The notes under the pieces: model-generated
Told to the model about the DNA's origin: nothing
Database searches by the model: none
What the model saw: only the letters and a program-made list of their open reading frames with translations
Made by a program: the position numbers and the translations under genes
Part shown: positions 2,725 to 35,100 of the stretch, piece by piece
Layout of the letters: each line of letters begins with the position of its first letter
Position numbering within the stretch: position 1 is the stretch's first letter
Assembly: GCF_015706575.1 (NCBI RefSeq)
Contig: NW_024037061.1
Location: 1,043,897-1,107,896, forward strand
Reading direction: 5' to 3'
DNA: 64,000 nucleotides
DNA from: Patiria miniata
Taxonomy: Eukaryota

Positions 2725-5457
2725 CACATGTACCGGTGTCGTGCCAAAAACCGTCCGGTGCCAAATAGTGTCCGCTAATTAGCATAATGCAATCTGATTG
2801 GCCACATGCGTCCATGACGTCACATTGTTTACGGAAGCTTGCAAATAGTGTCCGCGCTTAGCGTGCATCCTATTGCATGCCTTGTCGAGATGTCAAGGCG
2901 TCGTATAGATAAGATCTCTTTTCACCTGAATTTACATTTTACAATCTGTTTTAACGTTTTCCTTGTTATCTGTGATAACTATTAGACTAAGATTCCCTAA
3001 TAGTGTAAACATTATATTTGTGCAAAATGTTTGTTTTTTTCGTGTCAGTTCACCTGTTTGAAACACATGCAGTACGTACGAATAGGCCTAAAGTAACGCC
3101 GTAGTGTGTGTAGTTAGCTCTACTGAGTGGAGCGTTGAATTACGGGTACCCCTCCATACAAACGCTCCACCGATTTGCCATACTTTGGTGACGGCGTCAC
3201 AGTAGCATATAGTCACATACCCACGCGAGGACAAAAAGACCCCCCAAAAAACCGGTAAAGAGAATACAAATGAGAGAGACAGTTACCCTGGATTGATCTA
3301 CACATTCATGACATTCCATCAGACCCCTTACATTGTTCCCAAACAGCGAAAATTTTGAAGAAAAACAGCAAAATAGTCTGAAAACTTACAGCTCAATGAC
3401 TCGCCGTGAGGCTCAATCCTTGCACCGGTTTGCCGAATGAGGGCATCTGACGTGACGTCACCGTCGTTGCTCGATCGAAGAAAAACAAGTCGCGCTTTAT
3501 CAACGACTGTTTCGTGTAATGATACGTGCTCCTTGGGTGTGTTCAAAGCCCGTACTGTCGTACGGCGCGGATCGGAGCACGTATCATTGAATGACACGAA
3601 CAGTCGTTGATAAAGCGCGACTTGTTTTTCTTCGATCGAGCAACGACGGTGACGTCACGTCAGACGCCCTCATTCGGCAAACCGGTGCAAGGATTGAGCC
3701 TCACGGCGAACACATGAGGCTGTAAGTTTTCAGACTATTTTGCTGTTTTTCTTCAAAATTTTCGCTGTTTGGGAACAATGTAAGGGGTCTGATGGAATGT
3801 CATGAATGTGTAGATCAATCCAGGGTAACTGTCTCTCTCATTTGTATTCTCTTTACCGGGTTTTTGGGAGGTCTTTTTGTCCTCGCGTGGGTATGTGTCT
3901 ATGCTACTGTGACGCCGTCACCAAAGTATGGCAAATCGGTGGAGCGTTTGTATGGAGCGGTACCCGTAATTCAACGCTCCACTCAGTAGAGCTAGTGTAG
4001 TATAGTACTGTTCCGTGTAGCATTATAACCAACATTATTTCTGTTTGGTCAAAATCTAGAGGTCAAGATGCGGTTGTCTTGTACAATTAATCAGCGAATC
4101 TGAATGTCCATGGTCTATTGCATAGACTAGTCTGTGTGAGGGTTGCGCTTTAAAAGGTCTGAAACCCTGCAACTTTTTAAGAAGCTTGATCGAAGCACGC
4201 ATCGCCGACACCTATCAATGTCTCCAACGACAAGATAAATCATAATCATAAGCATAACACGAACATTTACATCTTTGCGTGCGTTTTAATCATCAATCAT
4301 TCGAAGACAATTCTCCCCCGCTGCTTTCCCCGTCATTGGCCCATGAACTTCGAGGTCATCGGTCGTATCGAAGGGACTTTCCCCAACTTTTACCGTTGGG
4401 TGATCAGTTGATAAAGCTCAGGCCACCAACCTCCAATTCCTCCGCATATGGTTTACAAAAACAAATCGAACCTCTGTTCTGAAACTATGTGTCATAGTGG
4501 ATTAATTTTGCTTTGTAATAATTCCTTCATTTTTAACCTGAAAGCATCTGAAAAATACAAATCATCAGGGCCATAGCCTGTCGATTGAAGGTGGTTTTAT
4601 GAGGTGGACCTTTTCATGTCTTATAAACAGCGGTTGAATAGGAAACATTTAGTCAAACTGAAATGTCAATCGCGAGGAAAAAGTGGACGTGCAGTTGATG
4701 TGTTTTTTTTAGGGGGGGTTCTTCTGACCCCCCCCCCTTCTCAAGTCCAGTGCTCGTGGCACAATTTAAATTTTCTGTCCTAATAACAATGACAATAGGT
4801 TCTCTTCTAATATCCCTTTTTGTTACAGTGATTAACAACAACAAAACAAACCAAACAAATTCAAGACTCAATGTCTTCCACTTTCAAGAGGATACAAAAC
4901 TTGAACACAATTTACCAGGAACAAAAAGTCAATATAACGAAAAATATATTATACACATAGACTGGCAATATGAGGTCACTAGTCTTTGTGCCCTGAGAGA
5001 CTGTGAGTGACCAGAAGAGGGTCCTATAATAGGACCCTAGCTCTTCCGGTCACTCACAGGCCCGAGGGGGCATAGACGTGCACTGAGGACCGAATTAATA
5101 TGCCAGATCCATGTTTTATAACTCATCTCTGTCCAAAATATTAAATAAGAAAAGAAACCTTTCAGTGTTTTATTCTTGAACTGTTTTAATTCAACAATTA
5201 ACTCCTAAGCAATTCAACTGTCAGCAATTCAACAATTTAAGGAACTTCACTTTTAGTTTCCCTAGATTACATTTTTGAATTTGAGTTTTGTCAGAGGGCG
5301 CTGTTACCAGTCAAACGTGCTCGATCAGGGGCTATATACTCTGGAAATTACGCGCGCGCGATGTCTCGACGCGCGTCTAGTTTCACACACTAGCCCATAT
5401 TAAGTGAATCACATGTGACCGCGTTTCAGCCAACCAGGATAATGAACAAGCAGGAGA
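2725..5457 (+). repeat. Left inverted-repeat arm of the composite element. Components: terminal motif, A segment, palindrome P, B segment, unit U.
   Basis: Reverse complement of 9521-12263. Sub-terminal direct repeats caaatagtgtccg occur three times near the terminus. Confidence 0.6.
3115..3993. repeat. Internal perfect palindrome P (arms about 435 bp, centre about 3557) within the left arm.
   Basis: tagctctactgagtggagcg...cgctccactcagtagagcta. The centre ccgtactgtcgtacgg is itself palindromic. It contains tgacgtca motifs. Confidence 0.7.
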
Positions 5458-5527
5458 TGACCAATCAGATCGCATTATGCTAGTAAGTGGACACTATTTG
5501 GCACCGGACAGTTTTTGGCACGACACC
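4279..5527 (+). repeat. Tandem sub-unit U1 (1.25 kb) of the left arm. It ends in a copy of the element's terminal motif.
   Basis: Starts taatcatcaatcattcgaagacaattctccc. Ends gaccaatcagatcgcattatgctagtaagtggacactatttggcaccggacagtttttggcacgacacc. Confidence 0.65.
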
Positions 5528-6777
5528 TGTCTTAATCATCAATCATTCGAAGACAATTCTCCCCCGCTGCTTTCCCCGTCATTGGCCCATGAACTTCGAG
5601 GTCATCGGTCGTATCGAAGGGACTTTCCCCAACTTTTACCGTTGGGTGATCAGTTGATAAAGCTCAGGCCACCAACCTCCAATTCCTCCGCATATGGTTT
5701 ACAAAAACAAATCAAACCTCTGTTCTGAAACTATGTGTCATAGTGGATTAATTTTGCTTTGTAATAATTCCTTCATTTTTAACCTGAAAGCATCTGAAAA
5801 ATACAAATCATCAGGGCCATAGCCAGTCGATGGAAGGTGGTTTTATGAGGTGGACCTTTTCATGTCTTATAAACAGCGGTTGAATAGGAAACATTTAGTC
5901 AAACTGAAATGTCAATCGCGAGGAAAAAGTGGACGTGCAGTTGATGTGTTTTTTTGGGGGGGGGGGTTCTTCTGACCCCCCTCCTCAAGTCCAGTGCTCG
6001 TGGCACAATTTAAATTTTCTGTCCTAATAACAATAACAATAGATTCTCTTCTAAAATCCCTTTTTGTTACAGTGATTAACAACAACAAAACAAACCAAAC
6101 AAATTCAAGACTCAATGTCTTCCACTTTCGAGAGGATACAAAACTTGAACACAATTTACGAGGAACAAAAAGTCAATATAACGAAAAATATATTATACAC
6201 ATAGACTGGCAATATGAGGTCACTAGTCTTTGTGCCCTGAGAGACTGTGAGTGACCAGAAGAGGGTCCTATAATAGGACCCTAGCTCTTCCGGTCACTCA
6301 CAGGCCCGAGGGGGCATAGACGTGCACTGGGGACCGAATTAATATGCCAGATCCGTGTGTTTTATAACTCATCTCTGTCCAAAATATTAAATAAGAAAAG
6401 AAACCTTTCAGTGTTTTATTCTTGAACTGTTTTAATTCAACAATTAACTCCTAAGCAATTCAACTGTCAGCAATTCAACAATTTAAGGAACTTCGCTTTT
6501 AGTTTCCCTAGATTACATTTTTGAATTTGAGTTTTGTCAGAGGGCGCTGTTACCAGTCAAACGTGCTCGATCAGGGGCTATATACTCTGGAAATTACGCG
6601 CGCGCGATGTCTCGACGCGCGTCTAGTTTCACACACTAGCCCATATTAAGTGAATCACATGTGACCGCGTTTCAGCCAACCAGGATAATGAACAAGCAGG
6701 AGATGACCAATCAGATCGCATTATGCTAGTAAGTGGACACTATTTGGCACCGGACGGTTTTTGGCACGACACCTGTC
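5528..6777 (+). repeat. Tandem sub-unit U2, near-identical to U1.
   Basis: ORF 5994..6254 is 96% identical to ORF 4750..5010. Ends with the same terminal-motif copy (6706-6777). Confidence 0.65.
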
Positions 6778-6910
6778 TTAATCATCAATCATTCGAAGAA
6801 AATTCTCCCCCGCTGCTTTCCCCGTCATTGGCCCATGAACTTCGAGGTCATCGGTCGTATCGAAGGGACTTTCCCCAACTTTTACCGGACGGTTTTTGGC
6901 ACGACACCGG
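6778..6910 (+). repeat. Truncated third unit (6778-6884) joined to a partial terminal motif (6885-6910), immediately upstream of the core gene's TATA box.
   Basis: The unit sequence breaks at ..ccaacttttaccg | gacggtttttggcacgacaccgg. Confidence 0.6.
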
Positions 6911-6948
6911 GCTTCGAGGTGAGCCAGTTGGAATCCTAGTTGCAATCC

Positions 6949-6956
6949 TATAAATA
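6949..6956 (+). promoter_or_regulatory. TATA box (tataaata) for the core Cys-rich gene.
   Basis: 126 bp upstream of the ATG at 7082. About 40 bp downstream of the inner terminal-motif copy. Confidence 0.45.
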
Positions 6957-7081
6957 CGGCACACTGGTTGTGGAGCTGGCACAGAACGGCCAAGAAAGTT
7001 AAGGGAAGCGACTTCAACTGCCGAACAGACGATTTCAAGTTGAGAGAAGCCGACACTTCATAGTTGCAATAATTCGACAAG

Positions 7082-7158
7082 ATGAATGCCTGTCATGTCA
7101 TCTTTGTTGTCGCCATTTCGGCCATCATGATCCTCGGTGCAAATGCAAACCGTAAATA
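7082..7158 (+). CDS. Exon 1 of the Cys-rich secreted protein gene (signal peptide).
   Basis: ATG; hydrophobic core; donor TA|gtaagt. Confidence 0.55.
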
Positions 7159-9156
7159 GTAAGTTCCGATTAAAGACTTGATTTAAAGCAAAGCAAAACA
7201 AAACAAATCTCCTGTTTCTGGTACACGCGCACATCGCCGTGGAACTTTTTTTCAATGTAAGATGATGTCTCAAAATAGGTTGACGGGAATCCTGCTGCCG
7301 CACAATTTTAACGTGTTTTTAGATGAGGTTACGTTCGAGTATAGGCTAAATTTATGTGGCCCCTCTGGGCTGCCATATATTTTGCACTAAATTTAGTCGG
7401 GCACCATTTTGCAGCCGGTATTGTAAATGTTTTAATTCAACCTCGTCCCCAGTGCTTACTTTATTTCCAACCGCGTTTCCAATAGTAAACCCTGGATAGG
7501 AAACTTTCTTCCTGTATCCTGATTGGATACCGCAATTGGCTAGTAATGGATATTTATCGTGTACTTGGTGCTATTATTCACAACGTGCAGTACGTGTTTT
7601 CGCGATCATTCGTCCCCGCCTTCTCGAAAATACTAATTTCCTTTCCAATTTGCTCATATTAATATGAACTATGATACTGCATGTTGTCTCGATAAGATCG
7701 TAACAGTTTGATTTCAAAAATCGTGTTTTCGTAACTCACGCCGTGCTCGCGCTGCTACGAATTGACTCTGTTTTTACCCCAGACACCGCATACAAAAACA
7801 AACGCTAATGTGTAACGCATATCCAGGCACCAGACTGTTCCTCATTTGCATACATGTGCACAAATCTTGCACATGCAAATGATCCAATACCAGGGTGAGA
7901 GAGCAGGTAGTGGTGGGCGCGTACTGCTCGACACCCTGGGAACGAGGTTGGTTTTAATTGTGCCAGACTGAGAGAGCGATGGTCGTGTATATCTGGAACC
8001 TGTAAACGCTTTAAAGAGGCGCAATATGTAAGGGAGCAGACTAATAACCAGCCTGACAGCACATGCACGATGTCGATGTCGCTGTTTGGTCTGACGTTAC
8101 CGTTTTCTCTGATTTTTGTCTTGACTTTCCAAATTTCCCAAAGAATGTTCGGGTCGGTCGAGATTGTTATGGGTGCAAAATTCTCAAGCCTTATGGCCTT
8201 ACCGAGGTCATCGCAGGTTGCACCCTGAGGGCTATTTTTGAGAGTTTTGGGGGGATAGGGGCGACCAAAATCCCCCAAAATGCCAGCCGTGGATATTCAT
8301 TCAAAGGGGGAGGGAGGGGGGGGGGGGCGTGGACAACACCATTACACTAGGGGCGTTGTTCATAATACAGCACATACATCTTTAACAAATGTATACATGT
8401 GCGTACGCGCCTTAAACATCAACACATTAAAACGGCGCATTTAATTAGAAACATCTCATTTTTCGATTGATGACATTCTGGTTGATGGGAAGCTTAGAAA
8501 AAAACCCCTGAAAATCCACATTTTTTTCTCAACACGAAAAAGTGCGAGGGGTGGGAGATCCAATTGCCCATCCCCACCCCCCCCCCCAGTCAAAAACTGG
8601 CCGGGGATGTATACCCCCCCTTCCCGGATTAACGCCCCTGCCTCCGACTTCCGTCATTTAAAGGGGAAAACTACTAACAAGTTAGTATGCAGTTCGAATC
8701 ATTACATTACCACTGAGCTTTGTATGTTTTGTTTTTCTTTGATGCAGCTGTTATTGCGATCTTCGATGGAGCACAACCCAGCTAAGAGCAGGGCAGAGCA
8801 CCAATGGTTTATGGTTCTTGGAGGACCTACCTAACCCGAGCTACCACCACTGGCTCGTCGTGGGCTGCCAGGCGGTCCATCGAAACTGCCCCACCGACTG
8901 CCTGGATGAGGCCCATGACTGGATGGGCGGGTCTAGGTTCACCAACACGGCGGGCCAGCTGGCCTGCGAGAGCGTGCGGAGGAACGCGCCTCCAGGCAGT
9001 CCGATCTACGTGTACGCAACGTACGACAGCGTGTGCGGCGATCGCACGTGGCAGTATGTGGCCCCGCTCTGCTGCTGGAAGATCACGCTCCCTGGCTACG
9101 GCAACACCTTTGTGTACAACCACAGATGTGAAAATTCGAGTCCACCAAGATACTGA
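7082..9156 (+). CDS. Two-exon gene (exons 7082-7158 and 8748-9156) for a small secreted cysteine-rich protein, about 161 aa. Family not recognised.
   Basis: Exon 1 ATGAATGCC... encodes the signal-peptide-like MNACHVIFVVAISAIMILGANANRK and ends phase 2 (..AAA TA) at a consensus donor |gtaagt. Exon 2 follows a pyrimidine-rich acceptor ttttgtttttctttgatgcag| and restores the frame: TA+C gives Y, then CYCDLRWSTTQLRAGQSTNGLWFLEDLPNPSYHHWLVVGCQAVHRNCPTDCLDEAHDWMGGSRFTNTAGQLACESVRRNAPPGSPIYVYATYDSVCGDRTWQYVAPLCCWKITLPGYGNTFVYNHRCENSSPPRY*. 10 Cys. TGA at 9154-9156. Confidence 0.55.
8748..9156 (+). CDS. Exon 2 of the Cys-rich secreted protein gene.
   Basis: Acceptor gatgcag|. Open frame to TGA at 9156. 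Corresponds to ORF 8818..9156 extended upstream. Confidence 0.55.
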
Positions 9157-9283
9157 GTTGTTTCTAGTTACTACCATACACATGATGGTTGGTGCCATGA
9201 TGCTGACTAGCGAAGCTTCAACTTCATGTGAACTCATACACAGACTGCATGGCGCTGACGCTGTAACATTGCTATTGCGAAAC

Positions 9284-9289
9284 AATAAA
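9284..9289 (+). terminator. Poly(A) signal AATAAA for the core gene. A second one lies at 9339-9344.
   Basis: 128 bp and 183 bp downstream of the stop codon. Confidence 0.4.
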
Positions 9290-9520
9290 TTGTTGCAAAG
9301 TTTATTTTCAGATTTAAGTCAAAGTACCAAACTACTTCAATAAACGGTATTTTGGAAGTTGTAGTACTCAGAACATATACTTGTTACACCCCCTAATTCG
9401 CTTGAACTCTGTCCCGTTAAAATTTAGAAAACAGTAGTCATAATTACCGATTTTTTTATTGATTTACTTAACGTGCAGTAAACGTAATAAATTAACATTG
9501 TGAGGCTATTTTCGTTTTTA

Positions 9521-12263
9521 ACACATCTCCTGCTTGTTCTTTATCCTGGTTGGCTGAAACGCGGTCACATGTGATTCACTTAATATGGGCTAGTGTGTGA
9601 AACTAGACGCGCGTCGAGACATCGCGCGAGCGTAATTTCCAGAGTATATAGCCCCTGATCGAGCACGTTTGACTGGTAACAGCGCCCTCTGACAAAACTC
9701 AAATTCAAAAATGTAATCTAGGGAAACTAAAAGCGAAGTTCCTTAAATTGTTGAATTGCTGACAGTTGAATTGCTTAGGAGTTAATTGTTGAATTAAAAC
9801 AGTTCAAGAATAAAACACTGAAAGGTTTCTTTTCTTATTTAATATTTTGGACAGAGATGAGTTATAAAACATGGATCTGGCATATTAATTCGGTCCCCAG
9901 TGCACATCTATGCCCCCTCGGGCCTGTGAGTGACCGGAAGAGCTAGGGTCCTATTATAGGACCCTCTTCTGGTCACTCACAGTCTCTCAGGGCGCAAAGA
10001 CTAGTGACCTCATATTGCCAGTCTATGTGTATAATATATTTTTCGTTATATTGAGTTTTTGTTCCTCGTAAATTGTGTTCAAGTTTTGTATCCTCTTGAA
10101 AGTGGAAGACATTGAGTCTTGAATTTGTTTGGTTTGTTTTGTTGTTGTTAATCACTGTAACAAAAAGGGATTTTAGAAGAGAATCTATTGTCATTGTTAT
10201 TAGGACAGAAAATTTAAATTGTGCCACGAGCACTGGACTTGAGGAGGGGGGTCAGAAGAACCCCCCCTAAAAAAAACACATCAACTGCACGTCCACTTTT
10301 TCCTCGCGATTGACATTTCAGTTTGACTAAATGTTTCCTATTCAACCGCTGTTTATAAGACATGAAAAGGTCCACCTCATAAAACCACCTTCCATCGACT
10401 GGCTATGGCCCTGATGATTTGTATTTTTCAGATGCTTTCAGGTTAAAAATGAAGGAATTATTACAAAGCAAAATTAATCCACTATGACACATAGTTTCAG
10501 AACAGAGGTTCGATTTGTTTTTGTAAACCATATGCGGAGGAATTGGAGGTTGGTGGCCTGAGCTTTATCAACTGATCACCCAACGGTAAAAGTTGGGGAA
10601 AGTCCCTTCGATACGACCGATGACCTCGAAGTTCATGGGCCAATGACGGGGAAAGCAGCGGGGGAGAATTGTCTTCGAATGATTGATGATTAAAACGCAC
10701 GCAAAGATGTAAATGTTCGTGTTATGCTTATGATTATGATTTATCTTGTCGTTGGAGACATTGATAGGTGTCGGCGATGCGTGCTTCGATCAAGCTTCTT
10801 AAAAAGTTGCAGGGTTTCAGACCTTTTAAAGCGCAACCCTCACACAGACTAGTCTATGCAATAGACCATAGACATTTGAGCAGATTCGCTGATTAATTGT
10901 ACAAGACAACCGCATCTTGACCTCTAGATTTTGACCAAACAGAAATAACGTTGGTTATAATGCTACACGGAACAGTACTATACTACACTAGCTCTACTGA
11001 GTGGAGCGTTGAATTACGGGTACCGCTCCATACAAACGCTCCACCGATTTGCCATACTTTGGTGACGGCGTCACAGTAGCATAGACACATACCCACGCGA
11101 GGACAAAAAGACCCCCCAAAAACCCGGTAAAGAGAATACAAATGAGAGAGACAGTTACCCTGGATTGATCTACACATTCATGACATTCCATCAGACCCCT
11201 TACATTGTTCCCAAACAGCGAAAATTTTGAAGAAAAACAGAAAAATAGTCTGAAAACTTACAGCCTCATGTGTTCGCCGTGAGGCTCAATCCTTGCACCG
11301 GTTTGCCGAATGAGGGCATCTGACGTGACGTCACCGTCGTTGCTCGATCGAAGAAAAACAAGTCGCGCTTTATCAACGACTGTTTCGTGTCATTCAATGA
11401 TACGTGCTCCGATCCGCGCCGTACGACAGTACGGGCTTTGAACACACCCAAGGAGCACGTATCATTACACGAAACAGTCTTTGATAAAGCGCGACTTGTT
11501 TTTCTTCGATCCAGCAACGACGGTGACGTCACGTCAGACGCCCTCATTCCGCAAACCGGTGCAAGGATTGAGCCTCACGGCGAGTCATTGAGCTGTAAGT
11601 TTTCAGACTATTTTGCTGTTTTTCTTCAAAATTTTCGCTGTTTGGGAACAATGTAAGGGGTCTGATGGAATGTCATGAATGTGTAGATCAATCCAGGGTA
11701 ACTGTCTCTCTCATTTGTATTCTCTTGAACGGTTTTTTGGGGGGTCTTTTTGTCCTCGCGTGGGTATGTGACTATATGCTACTGTGACGCCGTCACCAAA
11801 GTATGGCAAATCGGTGGAGCGTTTGTATGGAGGGGTACCCGTAATTCAACGCTCCACTCAGTAGAGCTAACTACACACACTACACACTACGGCGTTACTT
11901 TAGGCCTATTCGTACGTACTGCATGTGTTTCAAACAGGTGAACTGACACGAAAAAAACAAACATTTTGCACAAATATAATGTTTACACTATTAGGGAAAC
12001 TTAGTCTAATAGTTATCACAGATAACAAGGAAAACGTTAAAACAGATTGTAAAATGTAAATTCAGGTGAAAAGAGATCTTATCTATACGACGCCTTGACA
12101 TCTCGACAAGGCACGCAATAGGATGCACGCTAAGCGCGGACACTATTTGCAAGCTTCCGTAAACAATGTGACGTCATGGACGCATGACCAATCAGATCCC
12201 ATTATGCTAATTAGCGGACACTATTTGGCACCGGACGGTTTTTGGCACGACACCGGTACATGT
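9521..12263 (-). repeat. Right inverted-repeat arm of the composite element.
   Basis: Reverse complement of 2725-5457. It lacks the extra tandem units and the inner terminal-motif copy. Confidence 0.6.
10990..11879. repeat. The same palindrome P within the right arm.
   Basis: Mirror copy of 3115-3993. Confidence 0.7.
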
Positions 12264-12406
12264 AACCAATCGAGTTGCCAAAGCGCTCTGGTTGAAAGGG
12301 CAGTTATACATGTGATATATATTGACAATGGGTTTTTTTGCAATGCCATAACGACAACATTGACCAGCAGTTGAAAATCGCCATTTTTGACAGCTTCCAA
12401 GTTCCT

Positions 12407-12884
12407 AGCCCCATAAATGTGGCCTATTTACTGGACTACCTCCGTAAACATAGGCCACACATCCACATGTACAAAAACGTGTCGCACTTTGCCAAATTTT
12501 GATTTTCACATTTTAGGCTTAGTTGAAGGGTTTTTTTGGCTTTAGAAGCATACTCACCCTCTTTATAGGCTAATCAGAAAGTGCTGCCTTTTTCAGATGT
12601 CTAATTTTTGTGAAATTTCATGTTGAAATTTTGATACGCAAACGTGTGCAAATAAATCTGGAAATTTCACGAAAAATAGACATCTGAAAAAGGCAGCACT
12701 TTCTGATTAGCCTATAATTATAAAGAGGGTGAGTAGCCTATGCTTCTAAAGCCAAAAAAACCCTACAAACTAAGCCTAAATGTGAAAATCAAAATTTGGC
12801 AAAGTGCGACACGTTTTTGTACATGTGGATGTGTGGCCTATGTTTACGGAGGTAGTCCAGTAAATAGGCCACATTTATGGGGCT
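12407..12884. mobile_element. Foldback or hairpin MITE-like element: a perfect palindrome with arms about 215 bp and a central loop about 12625-12662.
   Basis: agccccataaatgtggcctatttactggac...gtccagtaaataggccacatttatggggct. A possible 9-bp TSD CCAAGTTCC sits at 12397-12405 and 12899-12907. Confidence 0.55.
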
Positions 12885-13252
12885 ACCAAGACTAAGTACC
12901 AAGTTCCATAACCACCATGACCACCATGACCACTGATAACGATAACCACTATGTAGGCCTAACGAGGCCCATTTAATTTGGCGATTGTGTACATGTAGTT
13001 ACAGGCCCCTCTTTAGTTTCGATCAAATTAGACTAGAGTCGCGTGTGATTTTTATCATTCTGTACGTACGTCATGTACGTTGCGTATGCGCTGCACTTTA
13101 CCGATCCGTAAAATTTGGGGACTTTCGACCTGTCTTTCTTTTCATTTTCAAGACATTTTTAAACGAACAAGTTATCATGTTGTCAAATGTCAATGTGGTT
13201 ACTTGATTTAACCCTTGATAAATAATCTCGTCTGAATTAAAATGAACCTTAC

Positions 13253-20127: not shown

Positions 20128-23100
20128 GTTGGTAAATTTTCTCATACACTAAGTATGATCACCATTTACGTGAAATTAAATGAAATATCCTAAATTTAAC
20201 AAAAATGTAAGTATTTTTTGTAGTATACATGTCCCAGCTGCTATCATAACGTGCGCATTGTACAGTTGTAGGGGGCATGCGTGGCGTCTGACATGTACTG
20301 CGTACTTATGTATGAATATATGCAACTGCTTTACTGAACATTGTTGGAACTTCAAATCTGAAGGTTTCGGGTAGAAATGCTAAGGGAATAAAATGCGCAT
20401 TACCCCTTTTAGATGATCACTGCATGCGGTACATGTAGGCCCAGTGAAGGTCCCCATATGCAAAAATGCTTGGGAAAGACCGTGACATCCCCCCCCCCCC
20501 CACGTTTTCTAATAGTACTCGGTATGAAGTGCTTTTTACTGTTAGATTTTGTGTTTTGTATATGAGGAACAAATCAAGTCTCTTTTTCTGAAATGAAGAT
20601 GGTGATTATTGTCCGTTTTCCTTTGCATGTTTTCATTTATTCATGGAGGTAGAAAAAAAACCATGGTTCATTGTATACATGTACAAATCATCTGTACATG
20701 ATGCAGTGGTGGACAGATGAATGTTGTGGTATTTCTTTTTAAATAAAGATGCCCAACTTGTGATGAGAGTATGCAAATAACCTTAAATTTTCACAGTTAC
20801 TAGTCAATAACACGTATTTTCTACTAAATGGAGCGATCGCCACATATTTTAAAATATGTTTTTTTCAAACTCGGTCACTTTAATTTTTACTCCCTGTGAT
20901 GAGATAAGGACTGGCCAGCCAACCTTGGTGGCCCAGTTCTTGTAATTAAGGTGTCTGCACTTCATACAGTGCAAGTTCTCCGACAGTGAACGGCGCTAAT
21001 TTCATTACGTTGGTGAAGGGCGAAACTTAAACCATAAACTCATCATATTCAACGATCAAATTAGTCAATATTTGTTGGTACTCTATCACTGTCCCCAAAA
21101 CCCATCCAAACTAATATTGACAGGTCTGTCTGTCTGCAGATCAGCTTGACCTTTAGACAAGTATCTATTTTAAGCTGGTATAAGTGTAGATCTAGGTCAT
21201 CAATTATTGGCCAGGACAAACGTTAATGATTGTACCAGGCATGCATTGAGCTCTTAAGTGATTGGCCAGTTCTGCTCAAATGCCCCAGACTGCAGAATCT
21301 CATTGGTCAACAGCTGGGTACCTCATTGATGAGCTCTTATGTGATTGGCCAGTTCTGCTCAAATGGCCAGACTGCTGAATCTCATTGGACAACAGCTGGC
21401 TACCTCATTGATGAGCTCTAAAGTGATTGGCCAGTTCAGCTCAAATGGCCAAACTGCATAAACTCATTGGTCAACAGCTGGCGACCTCATTGAGGAGCTC
21501 TTAAGTGATTGGCCAGTTCTGCTCAAATGCCCCAGACTGCTGAATCTCATTGGACAACAGCTGGCGACCTCATTGATGAGCTCTAAAGTGATTGGCCAGT
21601 TCTGCTCCAATGCCCCAGACTGCAGAATCTCATTAGACAACAGCTGGTGACCTCGTTGATACAAATTTGGGGGTTACAACGGGAGGTCACTGGCTGTTTT
21701 TCAATAACAAGTATTTGGTGACCCTGGAGCACTTAGTTCCTCAAGGACCAAGGATTACTGGATTTGCACAGTACTACTGTAGGATAACCTCCAGTGCTTG
21801 TGCAGTGTAAGCTGTGCACGTACTGTATGTATACATATGTACAATGTGCTGTATACGTACAGTATCTGTACTCGTGGAGGAAGTGGATTGTTTCTGTTGG
21901 CAGCTATAGAAATTAGAAGGGTAAGTCTTCAGCTTAAAAATAATTAGGGGGGGGGGGGGGAGGATTCGGCCTACGATTTACAATATTCTTCAATTGAAAA
22001 ATACATGTAAACATCCCAATTTGGTTTTGGCATTTCTGTACACCGGGCTGTGCCCAGGCAAGCCTCATTTTGCCATAAATCCTCACAAATATTTGGAGCT
22101 GTTCAAAATCTTATTAAAAAATGACAAATGGCCTACATTGCACATGTACATGTCCAATGTACCATACATACACGTAGCTGGCCAAAATGCATCTTGTTAA
22201 GAAATGATGAATGGCCTGAACTCTCCTGCTGCATTGCCCTTCTGAACTTTATATCAATAAATTAATATGAAATATGATACTTGTGTAAACCAAAATGTGG
22301 AATTTGAGATGAGTTCATGCCACGAAAATATTCTGCATAATTGGTAAAATATATCCTTAATGTGTATCTCTGTAGGGTTATCATAATTATAGGCTTTTTG
22401 AGAAACTAGCTGCTGACCACGAAGTTCTCGGCGAATTATTTGCGTTGCGCTTGCTAGTTCTGTACAGAATTTAGCTTTTTAGGGATACTTTTTCTCATCT
22501 TTATTTACAGTTTTTATGTCAGATAAAGGGGTTCACTGGAAGTGTGGTCATGGTGGGGAGACTTTGTGTTGTAAGACAACCTTTGACATAAAGTCCAAGT
22601 AGCCTTCTACATTTATGTTCACTGTATGTACTTCCGACCATTTTTCAGTAACTACAGTGTACATACACTTTAGTTTGAATTCATGTCATGGTTGCGTGAA
22701 TTCTTGCAGCTGCTCACATGCAGTAAGTTGAATCATATTTTTCTTACAACTCAGAAGAAATTTACAAGCATGTATTGTACAATGTATCAACGGGAAAATG
22801 AGTTTGTTTTTTGCCAGTGCCAACAGTACAAATCCAAGTGGAATTGAGCAGTATGTAGGTAGGAACTGGAAAACTCAAATCATACAAAATGTTCCCTCTA
22901 GGTAGTGAGAATTTTACTGATCGAGTCCAACAGAAGTAAAAGGTGAGGGAAAATGTGGTGTTCTACCACAGTCTTAAATGTACCGGTATGTATAAAGGGT
23001 AAACATTATAGGAGCTGTACATTGTTGAAAATACAGAGTTTTAAGAGTTCATTTATTTGATGTCCAACAGCAACGTGTCGACCTGTCCAAAGACTGGACG

Positions 23101-26100: not shown

Positions 26101-29100
26101 GCGACCTCCGAGCTACCAGATCTGACTGCCGGCTACCTGCTTGGTGTTAATGAGGTAAAACTGAAAAAAATGCTGCTAAATTATGTTTTAGTTAAACATG
26201 GGGAAGGTATTTTAGAAAAATATCTGGTTGATTAAGTTTCAGAAAACTTGCATCAAACATGCAATACACTGTTTTGAAATAAATTAGAATAAAAAAAATT
26301 GACTAATTTCTTGCTTGGCTTTTCACTTTATTGATACATACCATCGTACACATTTCATCTTTTCATAATGTGTTACCCTCACATTTAAAAATGCCATACT
26401 ATTATTTTGTTAATTATTTTTTTCAACATTATTTTATCAGTGTCTATTCAATCAAGATTTAAAAAGAGGTCATTTTTCCTCCCTCTGGAAGTGACCCTTT
26501 TGATTCATTGCAGAAATTAGAAAATTATGGTATTAACAACAACACAGGAAAACATTACCGTTCTTGTGTAATAAGAATCTGCCTTCAAAGATTTTTTTTT
26601 ATTTTTCAAATATCTGAAGTACTTAAGAAGATTTTTTTTTATGTGTATGTTTGGTGAGAAAGTACACAAAGTATATTCTTACGGTAGGGACAATTGTAAT
26701 GATGAGAATACAGGATACCTTACAGATGCAGCTCTGACTAAAAGGCGCTTGTTAAATCACTATTTTGTCTGGTTATTTTATCAGGCAGTTTATAGTGGAA
26801 TCCGGCGACCAGAATTTGAAGTTTTTTCTGCGGTGGTGTCATGCTCACGCGCATGCTGCAGGCATTCTTAAAGACGAGGCGCACGCGCATTTTGGTATTC
26901 CTATTGGTTGAAGGCGCCTGGAGTGCATGTGTACTACCTGAGGGCGACTCGCGCGAGTCTGGTGCCACCGTAGAAAATTGCTGCCGCCTGATTTGTCTAT
27001 TGGCAATGTGGATCTCGTGTGAAAATGTAGATATTCGGGTCTGGCCGCATTTGTCACATTAACGTATATTGTTTCTCATGGTCCCTATTCGAACGACGGA
27101 TGTGAATCAAGTTTTAATATTTTACACTTCTGAAAAGATATCCATCTTTGTTTTATGATTGATGATGGTTGTGTCATCAAGTGACATTGTTTATCGCAGG
27201 GCAGGACCTCCATGGAATGCGGGCTAGCGCGATATGGGCGCGTGCAGGACTTGCGTTGACTTGTATGTGTATCACACGGAATGTGACGGTCTGCCAACAT
27301 GTAAAAATGACAAGAATCTGCGAATCCATTAATTTTTTTTTATCCTGACTGGCTGTAGTTTCTTTCAGTTTGTTTATCACTCATCAGAAAGCAATCCGTT
27401 TGATTTCTAGTCATGCAAGACACAAGATGAGTATTTATTTTTTTGACAGCTTGCCTGTACATAACTTCGAGCAGGTTTCGTATTCCATATATTCCACACA
27501 TGCACGGGCATCTGTTTGGAGCATGCTGTTTCTCCTGCTCACTTTGAGCTTAAATTACAAGTACATGTACATGTCGTGAAGAATACTTAGTCATATAGTT
27601 AAAGGGAATATACAACATTTACAAACATCGAAAAACAAAACTACCAAGTGTTTACGAAATACCTTACTAGGATGTTGGTAAATGACAGTCTAAAGCATCC
27701 TGTAAAGTTATGTCACCTGGTGTGAAGTCATTTTCAAGAAAATGGTATTTTTGTATACATTTCCAACGGTGGTCAGCCGACCACTATTGGAAAAACCTAA
27801 CTATTTTTCAACTATTGCTCCAAATTTACAAATGTTTTTTTCAGTCAAAATGTTGTTTGCTATTGGTTACATGTTCATGAATGGGTGCAGGCCAGCTAGA
27901 CTGGTTCCCTTACCTTACAATTTTCCAGCATCTATAAATTGATCCATTTTATTTTTACTGGAGTCAGGGAACCAGACTACTTGAGCTTTTTTGTTTTTCT
28001 TGGTTTTTCCAGCATTTTCGAACACAAAACTTCAAACATGTCAGTGTAACAATATTTGATCTATTATACTAACCCCTCAAATACCGTAGTTCATTTCTGA
28101 AAATTAGAGCAAACATTCCCTTTAAATGAAGCATGTGTCTACATGTGTTGAATCCAAACCCTGATATTTCAAATTGTTTGCTGTCACATGGATTTTAAAG
28201 TGTAAGAAATTCACATGGTTTAAGAATGTACAGTTGAATTTGCACACGACATGTATTTTTTTTTTTGGGTAGCTTTTATGTACCGGTACATGTACATGTA
28301 CATGTACATGATGTAGCTTTTTTTTTTGTTTTTTTGTTTTTTAATATCTACTATAATACATGAACATGTATGTTGGCTAGAAGTATACAATACATACATG
28401 TGCACTGCCTCACAATTAAAAATTGAATAAAAAAACTAGCTCCCTGTATTGCTCTTCTAAAGGGGCCACACGGGCAGATACAAGGGGGTGGTTTGGTGCA
28501 CCCCCCCCCCTTCCTCACCTTCCAGCTGGGCAAGTTAAAAAAAAATTAATAAAAAAACCCACCAAAATTCCTTAATTCTCCTGATTAACACCATCACTCA
28601 ATATTGCAAATCGTGATTCATTGCTTAACCCTAACCCCCTAGGCCCTTGTTGCTTACAACCATCCTCAATCCTCCAAAATCCTCCAAAATTTTGCAACTC
28701 TGCCTAAATTTTTCAAAATTGTCAGACAGTCCTGCCTCAAAATGCATTCATCCTCAATCCTCCAAAATCCTCCTCATCCCAAAACTTTGCACTCGTGTTT
28801 AAATGAAGGATAACCAATGCCAAATCCTTCAAAATCATCAGACAGTCCTGCCTCAAAATGCATTCATCCTCAATCCTCCAAAATCCTCTTGTGCTTCAAT
28901 CACCATTCATCCTCAATCCTCCAGAACCCTCATTTGATTCAATCACCATTCATCCTCGATCCTCTAGAATCCTCCAAAACCGCCAGGAGGATTTTGGAGG
29001 AGTGAGGTGGGTTAGGGTTAAGGCCTTTCAGTCTGTTTATGCATTGACGGCAACGTCTTGTCCACCCTTTCCCCCCCCCCCCTTGAAAAAAGTCAACACC

Positions 29101-32100
29101 CCAACCATCCCCTTTGGAACATCCTGGACCCTCACTGGGCCATTATTTACCCATTTTGACTTGGAGCGTGCTTCGGTGTATTTGACTCATGAATATTGAT
29201 ATTTCTTTCAATATGCAAATTGGAATACTGTATATTTTTTGGTTAATAGGCCTATGATTTTTTAATGCTTTAGATTTTTGTCTACTGAAAAAAATTTAAC
29301 ATTGCCTCTAATCAGGACTCAGAACTTTAAACAGACATCTATAAGACAAAGACTACAATGTGCCAGTACTGGTACCTAGGAAAGGTTTGCATGCACAATC
29401 TGAATATTGGACTTAAACAAATTGAAATCAATTTTCAAAACAAAAATTCCTTTTTTATATACAGCAAGTGGCAAGTGCCTTCTTGACGTCCATCCAGCCA
29501 AACCTTAAAGACAGTCAGCTGGCAAGTCGCTATCTCACTATGCAGTTTAACAGCGACCCGGACAAGGTCGGCCAAGCGACCCCCGACCTTCTGCCGGTCA
29601 TCACGGGTCAAAGTTCACCGCGGGGCGGAGCATTCGACTTCGAAGTTTACAAGAAACATTTGACTAGCAAGAGACTTGGGAATGTTGTGCTGTACACGGA
29701 GGTCGTTCCAACAACTATGGTTCTATTTGAAAGGTAAAGATATGTACATCCACACTAGTAGAGAGCTCTATTAAATGGAACTAGAGCTATATTAAATTCA
29801 TACACAGGCATGCAACTTTTCCTCGGATCAGCTGATTTCCTCTTTTTTTACTTCCCATGTGTTCCATTGAAAATAGAAAAACACTGTACAAAGTCTGGGA
29901 AAAATTTGAATTTCCTCTTTTTTTGTGATTTCCCAGTTGCATGCCTGCATACAATGTACGTTCATTCATTACTTTTACCGCAAGTTGAGAAAACAGAGTA
30001 ACAAGAGTATGGAAAACTCCAAAGTTTGTATAGTTTTTGTATCGCTTTTAGCATCTGGGTCTGTATTTGAAAATTGATTCATAAGTAAAGTCAATATGCC
30101 CAAAACCAAAAAGCACAATTAGTAAATTATTCCACTCTGTGATAGATGTAATACTTTTGATTTTACGGTCTTGTGAAACTGTACCCATATGCGTATTGAA
30201 TACAGCCGAAATGTTTTTTTTGGTGGAATTCGGAGTTTTCAGCTGTGAAATTCCATTACATGAATGTTCAACAGTCGCGTTCAAAATGTTCGCACCAAGA
30301 ACGTGTACAAGAGCGTTCAGCATAAAGGAATAAAGAGTTGGTGCTGTAGTCATTTCACTCGAATCGTGCTCAATCCAACAAGATTCTGCATAATTCAAAT
30401 GAACCCTCGACTCCTTACCTTGAGGGAAAGGGAAAATGTTGTCTCTTTTGCATGAAGCAGTAAACAGGTTCATCCATCATGGCTGCAATATTTGAAAACG
30501 CTGGTGACCCTTAGTAACCAGTTCACGTCGGACGACATACATGCAATGTTTTGCGGTATTCGGAACGCATGACGGATAAACACGCAACGAGCGAGGCTGG
30601 AAATATCTGTCAGCGACCCGCTTGCAGCGAGCGAGGCCGGAAATATCAGGGTGTGCTACCCACAGATGACGGCTTGAACCAGTCTGGCATCAAGGTTCGT
30701 TAAAACAATCCCTTGCTGGGTCTGGTCAATGTCAAAATAATCCCGGCGCAAACTGGTTAAGAACTTGTTTTTTCATAATTGCCATATCCTGTGCACTTAC
30801 ATTTGAGCTCATTTCAGTTCGCGTATCTTCATGCTACATTTTTTCAGAGGTTCACCTTGAATGACATTTTGTTGATTATTCCATACGATTTGACTATAGT
30901 ACAACCCATTTAAGTTAGCGCGATGGCACCAGTTATACCACCAAGCGCCAATGTAAGACGCGGCACAATTGTATACAGATGCATCATTGTCTTGATCGTA
31001 AGTGGTGAACGGCCAGCCATTGTGATACTCCAATGCATTACCAGCCGTACTCAGCTCAACGTATGCCTCAACGCGAAGAGTATACTTGTCTCCTTCGATG
31101 CGAAACTCGCCGTACTTGGCCCATGCCGTAGTGCCGTTCAGTGCCTCTAATTCGACCAGCAGCTCCCATCCGCACGCCAACTCCGTCAATTGACGTACCA
31201 TGTCGTTTCCCAGCCAGAACTCGCCGGCCAGGTCTCCGAACCCTGCTCGGTACACCGCCCAATTGCGGTAGAAGTTGACACTGCCGTCCTGACGTCGCTG
31301 AATGGTCACCCAGCCTCCTCCGTCGGTGGTCATGTCGCAGTAGGCCTGGAAGTTGCGTTGAGCTACGGTGAGGTTGTAAACCCCGCTCGCCCGTTCCCCA
31401 GCCTCAAACAAAGTCCTGCAGGTGACAGCATCAGGTACAGCCAGGAGATCGCTGCCATCGTAGTAGACGAACCCCAGCATCTGTTTGAAATCCCCGGGTT
31501 TTTGAGCCTGATCAGCATCATTCAAGACACACAACTGTCTGTGCGAGCAGTAATTGACTGAGTGACACCGAGGATCTGAATGACAGTCGCGTACGCAGAT
31601 TACGGACGACGCCGTCTTCCTCCATGCATAATCGCTGTATACAAGTCCGTGATTACTGGCAGCTCGAAAAATAGCTCCTAGATGCTTGCCACTGCCTCGT
31701 GGCAGAAGGACACTGACAACAAAAATCAAAAGTCTGACGGTAGTCGCCTCCCATTGTGTCTTTGGATACATGATTCTTATGCACCCGTAGTAATCAAAAG
31801 ACGTTGAAACTTAATTGATTCGAGTAAACTACCACAAGCCTGAAGCATTTGTTCAATATCCTTTGAAGCGCAGTGTACAAAAGGTTGTCGTTTCGCCGGT
31901 CCTCACTTTCTGGTGACCACAACCACACTGCGCCTTTCCTCGTACTGATATACACGTACATGCACCAACTAAAACTGACACAAGTCTGATTGGGTATGCA
32001 CACAGAGCGCTGAAGATATTGGGAGTGGGGTAATTACCCTGTACGGCTATCAATTTTGGTAGTGTAATATAAAAACTTGCAAAATTGCCAATTACGGTAA

Positions 32101-35100
32101 TTAGGCTCGGGTTGTTTTATAATATATCACGTGCCTGCTTGGAGCCGTGCAAGGTCTTTGGCCAATAAGTGAATATTTATTACAGGATGCTTTAATTAGT
32201 TGCCATTGTAACAAAGCCTCCTGCGATACAATTAAAGGGCGTCCCTTTTTATTTCTATGGCTCTCATATTTTATTTTTTGCCTTTGAAGTTCACCTAGGG
32301 TCGGTCAAGACAAAACAAAACTCTGAACAATAAAACAGAAATTGCAGTTGCAACCGTATAGATTGCTAAATTAAATGATCCCAAGTGCTATTGTCTCTAG
32401 TTTTGTTTTTCGCCATGAGTTTATTAGCAGTTGATCACTGAAAAGAATAATAAAAGCGTATTTGGCAAGATGTAGTTGACTTATATTGTATCTGCACCTA
32501 GCAGCTCACTAACGTCAGATGTTTTGGCCATAGTGATAGCCATGACATACCAGTAAAGTTTTACCATAGATTGACACCTAATATGATGAGAGGCAACATC
32601 CTCTCATCTTCTGAAATTCCACTAGTTGCTATACGTGTACGTCGTTCTTAGCAAAGCAAAATAATGTGGTATTATTAATAGCTTTTCAAATAACACCAAG
32701 CCTGGTTGCCTGAATTTTGTTTTATTATTTTTGTTTTTTTCGTTTGTAATTGTTTTATTTCTTAATGGGGTTCCAGACAGGTTCGACGGTAATGAAACAG
32801 TTTTTTTTTTCCTTGGGTTGGGATTCTAAAATAGGGTCAGCCGGAAATGAGAACCAGTTGAGCTTCAAAGATGTTGAAATTGAACTGATTTAAGAAAACT
32901 ACGGCAAACCTGATTTACTTGTTCAACATACATGTACGTGTATTAGCACAGTGCAATCACCACCACAGCGCACCAACTATTAAACTGACACAAGTCTGAT
33001 GGTATCTACACAGCACTGAAAAATACCTGAGTAGGATAATTAGACAGTGTGTGCATGTACATGTATATGGCCGTTAGCTTTTGGTAGTTTAATTTTAAAA
33101 AATAATGGAGGAAAGAGTAATCACCTTGAGACCGGGATTAAGCCTGTTTGGTCCATAGGTTATTGCCAATTAATTAGGCTCGAGCTTGTTTTAGTCGTAA
33201 ATTACGCGCCTGCTTGGAGCCGTGCAGGATTATTGGCCATCACAACAAGGCCTTTGGTGCAATTACTTTGGGATATAAGAAGATATTAAAGGGAATATAC
33301 AACATTTGCAAACATCAAAAAATAAAACTAACAAGTTTTTACAAAATACCTTACTAGTATGTTGGTAAATGACAGTCTCAAGTATCTTGTAAAATTATTG
33401 CACCTGCTGTGAAGTCATTTTCAAGAAAATTTTATTTTTGTAAACATTTCCAACGGTGGTCGGCCGACCAGCGTTGGAAAAACCTAACTATTTTTCAACT
33501 ACTGCTCCAAATTTACCTTTTTTTTTCAGTCCAAATTTTGTTTGCTATTGGTTACATGTTCATGAACGGGTGCAGGCCAGCTAGACTGGTTCCCTTGCCT
33601 TACAATTTTCCATCATCTATAAATTGATCCATTTTATCTTTTGTGGAGTCAGGGAACCAACTACCTGAACATTTTTGTTTTTCTTGGTTTTTCCAACCTT
33701 TACGAACACAAAACTTCAAAAATGTCAGTGTAACAATATTTGATCTATTATACATGTACTAACCCCTCAAATAGTTCATTTCTGAAAATTACAGCAAAAG
33801 CCAATGATGTACATTCCCTTTAAACGCTGCTGCGTGAATTTGATGAATTTAACAGATCCAAAACTCACATTTCCCCCTTTTTTGTACAGTTTGATGTTCA
33901 AGGTTCCAGGGGACGTCGGTGTTGTTGCTATAGCAACCCGCATGACAGCAGGAAAAGGTGAGAACGTAAATTCTTTGAGTAGCTGTTAACTGTTCCTTTG
34001 CCTTGTAAATTTTCCGTCTTTTGTTTTATGGTAAATTTGTAATTATTATTATTATTAATTATTTCTGGTAATGAAACTAAGGATTCTTCAAAAGCGCCTT
34101 AGGCACTGAAGCTCGCAAGCATGAATAAACCTTAGAAGACGATGAGAATTAATTACAGTTTTAGGTGGGAGGTAGACCCCAGAAGAATATTGGGGGGGGG
34201 GGGGGGGAACCGACGGAATCGGGCAGGGACTCAAATCCAACCTGGCGGGATTAGAGCTCGAATCACAGGGTGTAAACTGCAACTATTGCGAGCGTTATCT
34301 GTTGTGCGTTAAAATGCACATAACACGTGAAATCTGTTTTGGCTTTCCATGTAGCCTGGTGTTCAGTTTGATATTCCCCACAAATGGCATGCAAAACTTT
34401 TCTGTTTCATTGTCTGAGACGTTACTAAGTAATTGTAAAGTTGGTTACGGGTACCCGATCCGGTAATCTGGAACCGGTTCCTGACATCAGCGGTCGGGTA
34501 CTTGGGTATCGGTTCCGATGCACACCCTTAGTGTTAAGGTGTTATTTGTTTATGGAATCCATTTGTGATATTGTGTTAGGACGTGGTGGCAACAAGTGGC
34601 TAGGACCCATAGGCTGTGCCATGTTCTCCTTGCACGTGCGGATTCCCTTCGGTTCAGAGCTTGCCGACAAGCTCCCGTTCTTACAGCACATTGCTTCGGC
34701 TGCCGTTGTTGAGGCTGTCAGATCCATAAATGGCTATCAGGTAAGCTCTGCTTAACAGAATGCTAAGTAATTTTCTAAGCAGAATTGTTTTTTTTGTTGA
34801 GTGTCTGAACTTGAATATTACTGCAAGTTTTTGAGTACATTCGTTTTAAGAGCATGCTGAACATGGTTACAAGAATGTCTCAGAAAGGGTGAATAATGAA
34901 GAAGTACAAACAAGAACATTGGTTTAAGTGTTGGCTCTGAAACAGGCCCTTCGCGTGAAACATTTGCATGAGCATTCATAGATGTTCAACTATTTGTGTA
35001 TTGACTACGTATTTTTCAACAAGACAAACTCTCCAAATTGCGTCTAAAATTTGTGTGGACATTACAGGACATAGATCTGCGACTGAAGTGGCCCAACGAC

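Follow-up and report, generated by a model that had tools for sequence, protein, structure and literature searches.

The window considered here, 64,000 nucleotides of the sea star Patiria miniata (NCBI RefSeq assembly GCF_015706575.1, contig NW_024037061.1, positions 1,043,897 to 1,107,896 of the forward strand, numbered below from its first letter), contains a 9.5-kb inverted-repeat unit (2726-12263) that carries in its middle a complete host gene, LOC119730529. Each outer end of this unit is formed by a block of 72-75 bp, denoted here as T (T' when inverted), and the same block recurs internally, at the junctions of a tandem array with a period of 1246 bp. The reading that we favour, and for which we judge the case to be evenly balanced, is that T may be the terminal inverted repeat (TIR) of a non-autonomous cut-and-paste (class II) DNA transposon, that the left arm of the unit would represent a complete copy of this element (denoted S), and that the composite unit and the rearrangement of the array would have come later. 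All structural inference is drawn from this one locus. The anatomy of the unit, the identities between its parts, the sequences of its junctions, the arm's lack of coding capacity and the derivation of the core promoter from the host are observations and are laid out before the model is weighed.

Architecture of the inverted-repeat unit

At least 57% of the unit consists of its two arms, left (2726-5459) and right (9524-12263), whose complementarity is about 99%. Their similarity ends sharply, on the outside at 2725/12264 and on the inside at 5459/9524, and the presence of sharp-ended TIRs was confirmed by the alignment of 2726-2806 with 12184-12263 (76 matches, 3 mismatches and 1 gap position). 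Next to the terminal block, the left arm contains a non-coding segment, A (2807-4282), about 99% identical to 10697-12183 in inverted orientation, with 13 mismatches in 1478 bp between both arms. In the two arms, A is contiguous with a second segment, U, which forms the inner 1.17 kb of the arm and is the body of the tandem unit. On the left side, and always on the plus strand, U is found as U1 (4283-5456), as U2 (5531-6702), which differs from U1 by 15 mismatches and 8 gap positions, and as U3, a truncated version recognized both as a member of the repeat family and by alignment, which retains the first 113 nt of U (6777-6887, or 6775-6887 when counted in the phase of the array). The right arm, as defined by the inverted-repeat pairs, consists of A and U on the minus strand (9524-12183), with a single unit and without T at its inner end. 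Pairwise comparison of U1, U2 and the right-arm unit gives 12-15 mismatches each in 1174 bp, so that the three are equally distant from one another. An assembly artefact of the missed-adapter palindrome type was considered and ruled out: the arms differ by about 1%, indels included, are not symmetric, and have a unique core between them.

The arms lack coding capacity. Six-frame translations of 2726-5530 gave zero matches to Pfam, and a search of the arm for Rfam families and tRNAs found nothing. Among the open reading frames (ORFs) of at least 180 aa in the window, which were not run against Pfam, none lies inside the element and none is transposase-like, and no candidates emerged when the ORF that spans the right terminus was used as a protein query. 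The unit can be described as non-autonomous, since its sole gene encodes a 161-aa secreted host protein and 2726-5530 has no Pfam match. No further copy of any part of 2726-12263 was found in the remaining 54 kb of the window, the terminal motif gave 0 matches in each of the metagenome, viral and prokaryote-contig collections, and an empty site, reconstructed by joining both flanks and sought in the window, had no match.

The terminal block and its internal copies

The copies of T were located by pattern searches (allowing up to 3 mismatches), by repeat finding and by blastn-short, and these methods agree. They comprise the left-terminal T' (2732-2806, minus strand), the right-terminal T (12184-12257, plus), from which T' differs by 3 mismatches and a 2-nt indel, a first internal copy at 5457-5530 (plus), a second one at 6703-6776 (plus), and a partial third one on the plus strand, in which the last 22-25 nt are perfectly preserved at 6884-6908 and are followed by GG up to 6910. 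These 4-5 matches contrast with 0 expected in shuffled sequence, and no other copy of T was found elsewhere in the window. Each of the five occupies an outer end, a unit junction or a host junction. The initial annotation had described this recurrence at the unit junctions, at 5455-5527, 6702-6777 and 6885-6910, and the measured copies fall within 1-3 bp of those positions.

The limits of T are defined consistently. In all three internal contexts (the T/U junction twice and the T/host junction once) the similarity to the outer ends begins at ATGACC and stops at GACACC(G)G, and the sequence on either side of internal T is unrelated to the flanks of the outer ends. These results support T as a discrete terminal block of the inverted-repeat unit. 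Within it can be discerned an NF-Y-type box (GACCAATCAG), an AT-rich stretch and two 17-bp direct repeats, GGACACTATTTGGCACC and GGACGGTTTTTGGCACG. At both outer ends a third GGACACTATTTG box follows, about 65 bp further inward (on the left in segment A, at 2842-2853). The GGACACTATTTG sequence occurs exactly six times and is confined to the element, and the degenerate form TTTGGCACSR is found nine times, against 0.86 expected, always within copies of T. By analogy, this subterminal arrangement of boxes looks like the transposase-binding ends of cut-and-paste transposons.

The divergence among the copies is informative about their relationships. A single one of 72 positions distinguishes the two complete internal blocks, which depart from the right-terminal T at 5-6 of 72 and from the left-terminal block by 7 differences plus a gap; the two terminal blocks differ by 4-5 changes clustered within 20 nt, which is above the average of the arms. 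Thus, internal T is 92-93% identical to outer T, compared with the roughly 99% identity of the arms with each other, and for this reason internal T is not a recent copy of a terminus; the origin from the right end that had been assumed for it, as a fresh copy, is thereby ruled out. In addition, the internal copies are inverted with respect to the left terminus, and therefore 2726-5530 forms in its own right a non-coding unit of 2.8 kb, with inverted repeats of 73 nt and 90% complementarity at its two ends. Judging from this divergence and arrangement, internal T is probably the second TIR, older and imperfect, of a sub-element of 2.8 kb, S (2726-5530).

Junctions of the tandem array

The array consists of U1 plus T (4283-5528), U2 plus T (5529-6774) and the truncated U3 (6775-6887). 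Its T/U junction reads GGCACGACACC/tgtc/TTAATC, to be compared with GGCACGACACCGGT/ACATGT at the true end: both match through GGCACGACACC, at which point the junction has tGT and the true end GGT, and the TGTC/TTAATC that comes next corresponds to the arm at 4283-4286. The right edge of the duplicated segment thus falls within about 3 bp of the terminal base of T. By our own estimate, a random breakpoint within 2.8 kb would hit this base with a probability of 0.2-0.5%. Because of this coincidence, an end-associated origin of the founding duplication appears more likely than simple slippage, and a generic satellite born of slippage does not account, in the window, for a unit boundary that matches the terminal base of T within 3 bp. 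A second feature of the array is that the U1/U2 and U2/U3 junctions are identical, the extra TGTC included, and therefore correspond to one founding event, the third unit having been made by copying, most simply by unequal exchange. Consequently, the notion that the units arose by repeated end-associated events rather than by slippage can be retained in part: it fits the first duplication, whose edge lies within about 3 bp of the end of T, and it fails as regards repetition, since both junctions are the same.

The third unit requires a different explanation. The junction between U3 and the partial T reads ttttACCG/GACGG, and ACCG is present at both parental positions (110-113 and 1221-1224 of the unit); a microhomology of at least 4 nt would be expected by chance in about 1.6% of cases. 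On the basis of these letters, the partial T is explained as the remnant of a 1111-bp deletion, mediated by ACCG microhomology, inside a once-complete third unit, and not, as had been suggested, as a separate event at an element end. The region from the deletion junction (ACCG, 6884-6887) to 6910 thus comprises the terminal 22-24 nt of the third T, which ends flush with host sequence at GACACCGG/GCTTCGAGG. A 9-mer, CTTCGAGGT, is common to U3 (6843-6851) and to the beginning of the host side just after the T remnant (6912-6920), either by chance or as a trace of rearrangement.

On the opposite side of the gene, the right arm stops at 9524, equivalent to left-arm position 5459, within 3 bp of the start of T and with an ATG overlap, in keeping with the earlier description of a single right-arm unit that lacks the motif at its inner end. 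No degenerate remnant of an inner T was found in 6911-9523. An attempt to root the order of duplications from U1, U2 and the right-arm unit failed, every variant being a singleton and the distances being equal. Because these three units are equidistant, the tandem and the inverted duplications are therefore about equally old, or else they have been homogenised by gene conversion.

The enclosed gene and its promoter

The core of the unit (6911-9523, plus strand) is an intact host gene, LOC119730529, as indicated by its spliced translation and by a conserved TATA block. Its coding sequence comprises two exons (exon 1, 7082-7158; exon 2, 8748-9156) separated by an intron (7159-8747) with a GTAAGT donor at 7159 and the acceptor at 8747, and AATAAA signals are present in the 3' flank. 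The spliced translation is 100% identical (161/161 aa) to the P. miniata LOC119730529 protein, a secreted, cysteine-rich product of 161 aa in which no Pfam domain was found and for which the protein search returned a single isoform. Paralogous proteins show 84%, 78% and 57% identity, and the orthologue from Acanthaster planci 62%. Neither the T motif nor long inverted repeats on the flanks are present at the Acanthaster locus. This locus also contains, at 4029-4144 of the Acanthaster sequence and some 6 kb upstream of the orthologous gene, a second fragment with 75% identity to exon 2, and the gene family is therefore locally duplicated in Acanthaster too.

The TATA box of LOC119730529 (TATAAATA, 6949-6956) lies 39-41 bp downstream of the end of the partial T, close to the 40 bp that had been noted initially. 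The block that contains it, TCCTATAAATACGGCACA, has its counterpart in TCTTATAGATACGGCACA at the equivalent position of the Acanthaster orthologue, and because this conservation extends to a locus without T or arms, the TATA region is, on comparative sequence grounds, of host origin. It had been proposed that a CCAAT box borne by T might serve this core promoter. A CCAAT box is usually located no more than about 100 bp ahead of the start site. All that is left of T beside the promoter is the terminal GGACGGTTTTTGGCACGACACC(GG), without the gaccaatcag part, and the T-borne sites of the form RRCCAATSR (6705-6713 and 5459-5467) are 236 bp or more upstream of the TATA box at 6949, the nearest at about 240 bp, so that T supplies no promoter-proximal NF-Y box and the proposal is not sustained.

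If the element contributes any regulation, U3 would be a better candidate than the T remnant. Its 113 nt hold a reverse NF-Y-type box (6825-6833) and the canonical kappaB decamer, GGGACTTTCC, at 6865-6874, that is, 75-84 bp upstream of the TATA box. In the window this decamer is found exclusively in copies of U, four times against 0.1 expected (4373-4382, 5619-5628 and 6865-6874 on the plus strand, 10597-10606 on the minus strand), and no site matching GGGRNWYYCC was found in the Acanthaster locus. The kappaB site in U3 is thus a possible transposon-borne regulatory input to the gene for a secreted cysteine-rich protein.

A separate observation concerns splicing. Internal T (5457-5488 and 6703-6734) reads ATGACCAATCAGATCGCATTATGCTA/GTAAGT, that is, an ATG followed by a consensus splice donor, the phase of which (TA/GTAAGT) equals that of the donor of host exon 1 (7157-7164), whereas the outer copies of T carry the palindrome GCTAATTAGC at this place. 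Internal T could, as far as its letters go, provide a cryptic alternative first exon.

Outer termini and candidate target-site duplication

The hexamer ACATGT is present immediately outside both terminal blocks, at 2726-2731 on the left and at 12258-12263 on the right, and it can be viewed either as a palindromic 6-bp target-site duplication (TSD) or as the last 6 nt of the inverted repeat. Because the internal T ends lack it, ACATGT may be better read as a candidate 6-bp TSD than as part of the TIR. Should this be so, the whole 9.5-kb unit would have been inserted as one piece.

The outer ends display other motifs. A perfect cAMP response element (CRE, TGACGTCA) is located at 2815-2822, in segment A, and at 12169-12176, in both cases 12 bp inside the CCAAT box, and the combination of CRE, NF-Y box and a TAATTA palindrome within the terminal 100 bp has the appearance of a compact promoter-like module.

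Other repeats in the window

Segment A harbours a nested 880-bp foldback miniature inverted-repeat transposable element (MITE) at 3115-3994, flanked by a 7-bp direct repeat, GTGTAGT (3108-3114 and 3995-4001). Its arms are near perfect, its loop measures 87 bp, and it contains two CRE sites (TGACGTCA). Its mirror copy, in the right arm at about 10983-11890, carries one more 7-bp repeat, GTAGTGT, at the edge. Just beyond the right end of the unit, at 12406-12885, there is a foldback-type palindrome of about 480 bp, whose 147-nt arms are 95% complementary. Further away, at 38210-38393, an inverted pair with arms of about 32 nt, about 125 bp apart, carries in each arm CTGACCAATCAGATG, a 13-mer also present in T; this pair may represent a very small inverted-repeat element or a set of CCAAT boxes acting in both directions. 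Minisatellites were found at 21247-21660 (five 83-bp units with two or three CCAAT boxes each) and at 52751-53154 (six 64-bp units). Finally, a dispersed direct duplication with 43-bp tandem repeats has copies about 5.7-6.6 kb apart (28623-29021 versus 35262-35703, and 27599-28016 versus 33286-33701), and a fibrinogen-like ORF of 320 aa (30809-31771, minus strand) is located between them.

Origin of the unit

These observations could be integrated by assuming that a short-TIR element gave rise to the whole structure. We infer that T served as a transposase substrate, that S or the 9.5-kb unit has moved, and that the rearrangements took place in the order and by the mechanisms given next. In this model, S, made up of T' (2732-2806), A, U and T (5457-5530), would be a complete short-TIR element of about 2.8 kb, equivalent to the left arm, and its inner end would have been placed about 40 bp upstream of the TATA box of the host secreted-protein gene. 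A second, inverted T'-A-U copy, 99% identical and without an inner T, would have been established just downstream of the gene, so that the two outer T' ends would bracket a composite, foldback-like unit of 9.5 kb with ACATGT on either side. The inner 1246 bp of S (U plus T) would then have been duplicated once, when a DNA end at, or within 3 bp of, the terminal base of T was joined to position 4283-4286 or so of another copy. This might have occurred through cleavage at the inner end (for instance, by the transposase) followed by end-joining or aberrant gap repair, or, alternatively, through nested self-insertion followed by recombination between direct repeats. The array would have expanded to three units through unequal exchange and, as a last step, 1111 bp of the third unit would have been lost by microhomology-mediated deletion, fusing the 113 nt of U3 to the last 22 nt of T.

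Several facts weigh against this model. The evidence comes from a single locus: searches of the window and of the viral, metagenome and prokaryote collections gave no further copy of T, of S or of the 9.5-kb unit, and neither a transposase partner nor a superfamily was identified for T. The right arm ends within 3 bp of the start of T, for which the model needs an oddly precise loss of the inner TIR. As U1, U2 and the right-arm unit are equidistant, the order of events cannot be read from the sequence. Moreover, ACATGT is palindromic and equally well a 6-nt extension of the TIR, and TSDs of 2, 4 or 8 nt (the latter with one mismatch) also fit; with the length of the TSD ambiguous, a superfamily cannot be assigned from the terminal nucleotides and the TSD. 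Nor does S alone show a TSD: it is bordered by ACATGT on the left and, at its inner end, by GCTTCG. We also considered a perfect foldback as the ancestor, [T'-A-U][U'-A'-T], into the centre of which other material was inserted; this fits the point at which the right arm stops and does not fit the T/U junction, and it is kept only as an idea.

Other explanations deserve consideration. The unit might belong to a single long-TIR family of the foldback type, in which the 2.7-kb arms are the TIRs, the internal copies of T are duplicated terminal modules serving as extra transposase-binding sites within a tandemly repeated TIR domain, the gene is a captured middle, and no independent 2.8-kb element exists. 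We consider this unlikely. The arms do account for 57% or more of the unit, a tandem array lies inside one of them with a pair of terminal boxes in each of its units, foldback elements have been reported in a sea urchin, and the window itself contains small foldback MITEs (3115-3994 and 12406-12885). In Tetris, the TIR-220 repeats and the terminal domain have a 37-bp stretch in common, and the repeats of Galileo carry secondary binding sites (PMC4079207). Against this, internal T is inverted, not direct, relative to the adjacent left terminus, the array is restricted to one arm, its 1246-bp period is far above that of the published cases cited (about 220 bp in Tetris), internal and outer T are much more diverged than the arms are from each other, and this reading gives no reason why the unit should end at the terminal base of T. 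A different possibility, which we hold to be distinctly unlikely, is a composite insertion produced in one episode by alternative transposition of the Ac/Ds type and re-replication, in which the ends of two nearby copies were used together and inserted, the DNA next to them (the gene and parts of the elements included) was re-replicated, and the aborted forks were end-joined, so that transposon termini came to enclose a segmental duplication with microhomology at its internal junctions. Both the mechanism and this type of product are documented in maize (PMC4270019, PMC3744419), termini do flank a host segment with a candidate TSD, microhomologies or short fillers of 3-4 nt are found at the junctions (ATG at 9524, ACCG at 6884 and TGTC at 5528), and the roughly equal distances among U1, U2 and the right arm would suit a single episode, although such distances could equally come from gene conversion between repeats. 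Yet no donor locus is known, the nearest paralogous proteins are just 84% and 78% identical, with no sign of a recent gene duplicate, and the two identical T/U junctions would still require a separate amplification.

It is also conceivable, if very improbable in our view, that no mobile element is involved, and that the locus results from local inverted segmental and tandem duplication by template switching or palindrome formation, T being a short repeat such as a regulatory module with an NF-Y site. Such a scenario would agree with the single-copy status of the unit in the window and in the viral, metagenome and prokaryote collections, with the failure to find a transposase, with the consensus NF-Y-type site in T and the CRE sites beside it, and with microhomology junctions typical of replication-based rearrangement. 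It is difficult to reconcile with the fact that three independent breakpoints (outer ends, tandem junction and T/host junction) fall at edges of T, with two arms that end at exactly the same base and are followed by an identical hexamer, with direct subterminal repeats arranged in T as in transposon ends, and with the inverted pair formed by T' and internal T. At the other extreme, the 9.5-kb unit might be a mobile composite similar to a bacterial Tn, here in an animal, in which two inverted copies of a non-autonomous 2.8-kb element move a complete host effector gene together with its promoter and contribute to its upstream control a canonical kappaB-type site, GGGACTTTCC, plus NF-Y boxes, at no more than 125 bp from the TATA box, the internal T ends recording cleavage by the transposase at the inner ends; we regard this proposal as highly doubtful.

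Comparison with known systems

In foldback-like elements, tandem repeats inside the long TIRs resemble the terminal domain (the 37-bp stretch of Tetris and the secondary transposase-binding sites of Galileo), and unequal crossing-over alters the number of repeats; in Tetris of Drosophila virilis, the repeat unit is about 220 bp and the TSD 8-10 bp (PMC4079207). The P. miniata unit shares with Tetris, Galileo, FB and the long-TIR elements of sea urchins its non-autonomous nature, its long inverted arms, the tandem array within an arm, repeat units that have sequence in common with the terminal domain, and a middle without transposase. Galileo, a member of the P superfamily, generates a 7-bp TSD. 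Unlike these examples, the P. miniata unit has an internal T inverted relative to the adjacent end, a 1246-bp repeat in one arm only, a unit boundary that coincides with the terminal base of T, a complete and apparently functional host gene as its middle, and a TSD of possibly 6 bp. Foldback elements have tandem repeats in both long TIRs, and here, with arms of about 2.7 kb, the array was found in the left arm alone.

A resemblance can also be traced to composites and macrotransposons, such as those flanked by bacterial IS elements or those of KolobokP, in which cargo lies between two copies of a smaller short-TIR element and the outer ends define the unit. Further examples of the composite type are the Ac/Ds macrotransposons of maize and the FB-flanked "TE" elements of Drosophila. 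In a composite both modules are complete, and in this case the left one has T' and internal T and the right one stops at 9524 without an inner T; the P. miniata unit departs from such transposons in this missing inner end, in having a host gene as cargo, and in being a candidate unit whose movement is only hypothesised. KolobokP, which has been reported in P. miniata, also forms multimers by unequal crossover; its long terminal repeats are direct and measure about 450 or 660 bp, its TIRs reach 18 bp at most, and it encodes a transposase and a His-Me nuclease, and elements of the Kolobok superfamily produce TTAA target-site duplications (PMC9587614). Membership in KolobokP was ruled out, given that the arms described here are inverted, the ends show no TTAA and there are no transposase or nuclease genes.

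As for alternative (reversed-ends) transposition of Ac/Ds in maize, its breakpoint junctions carry 8-bp TSDs (PMC3744419). The P. miniata locus is similar to its products in the presence of transposon termini at duplication junctions, in the segmental duplication between ends and in the end-joined internal junctions (PMC3744419, PMC4270019). It differs in that the T/U junction shows an ambiguous TGTC/CTTAAT and no demonstrable TSD, and in that the duplicated DNA is the interior of the element itself and not flanking host DNA.

We class the locus as a structural curiosity, a probable non-autonomous foldback- or composite-like class II element, and not a new kind of system; with one copy in hand, it stands as an annotated curiosity and carries no finding about mechanism. 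If the model built on S were true, the locus would provide a compact and datable case (about 1% divergence) of a short-TIR transposon becoming a long-arm foldback or composite around an intact gene, with a transposon end serving as the breakpoint for an internal duplication. In addition, a lineage-specific gene for a secreted protein would have had all its sequence beyond about -40 from the TATA box replaced, on the upstream side, by transposon DNA, and the case would bear on the origin of foldback elements and of transposon-borne gene duplicates in echinoderms.

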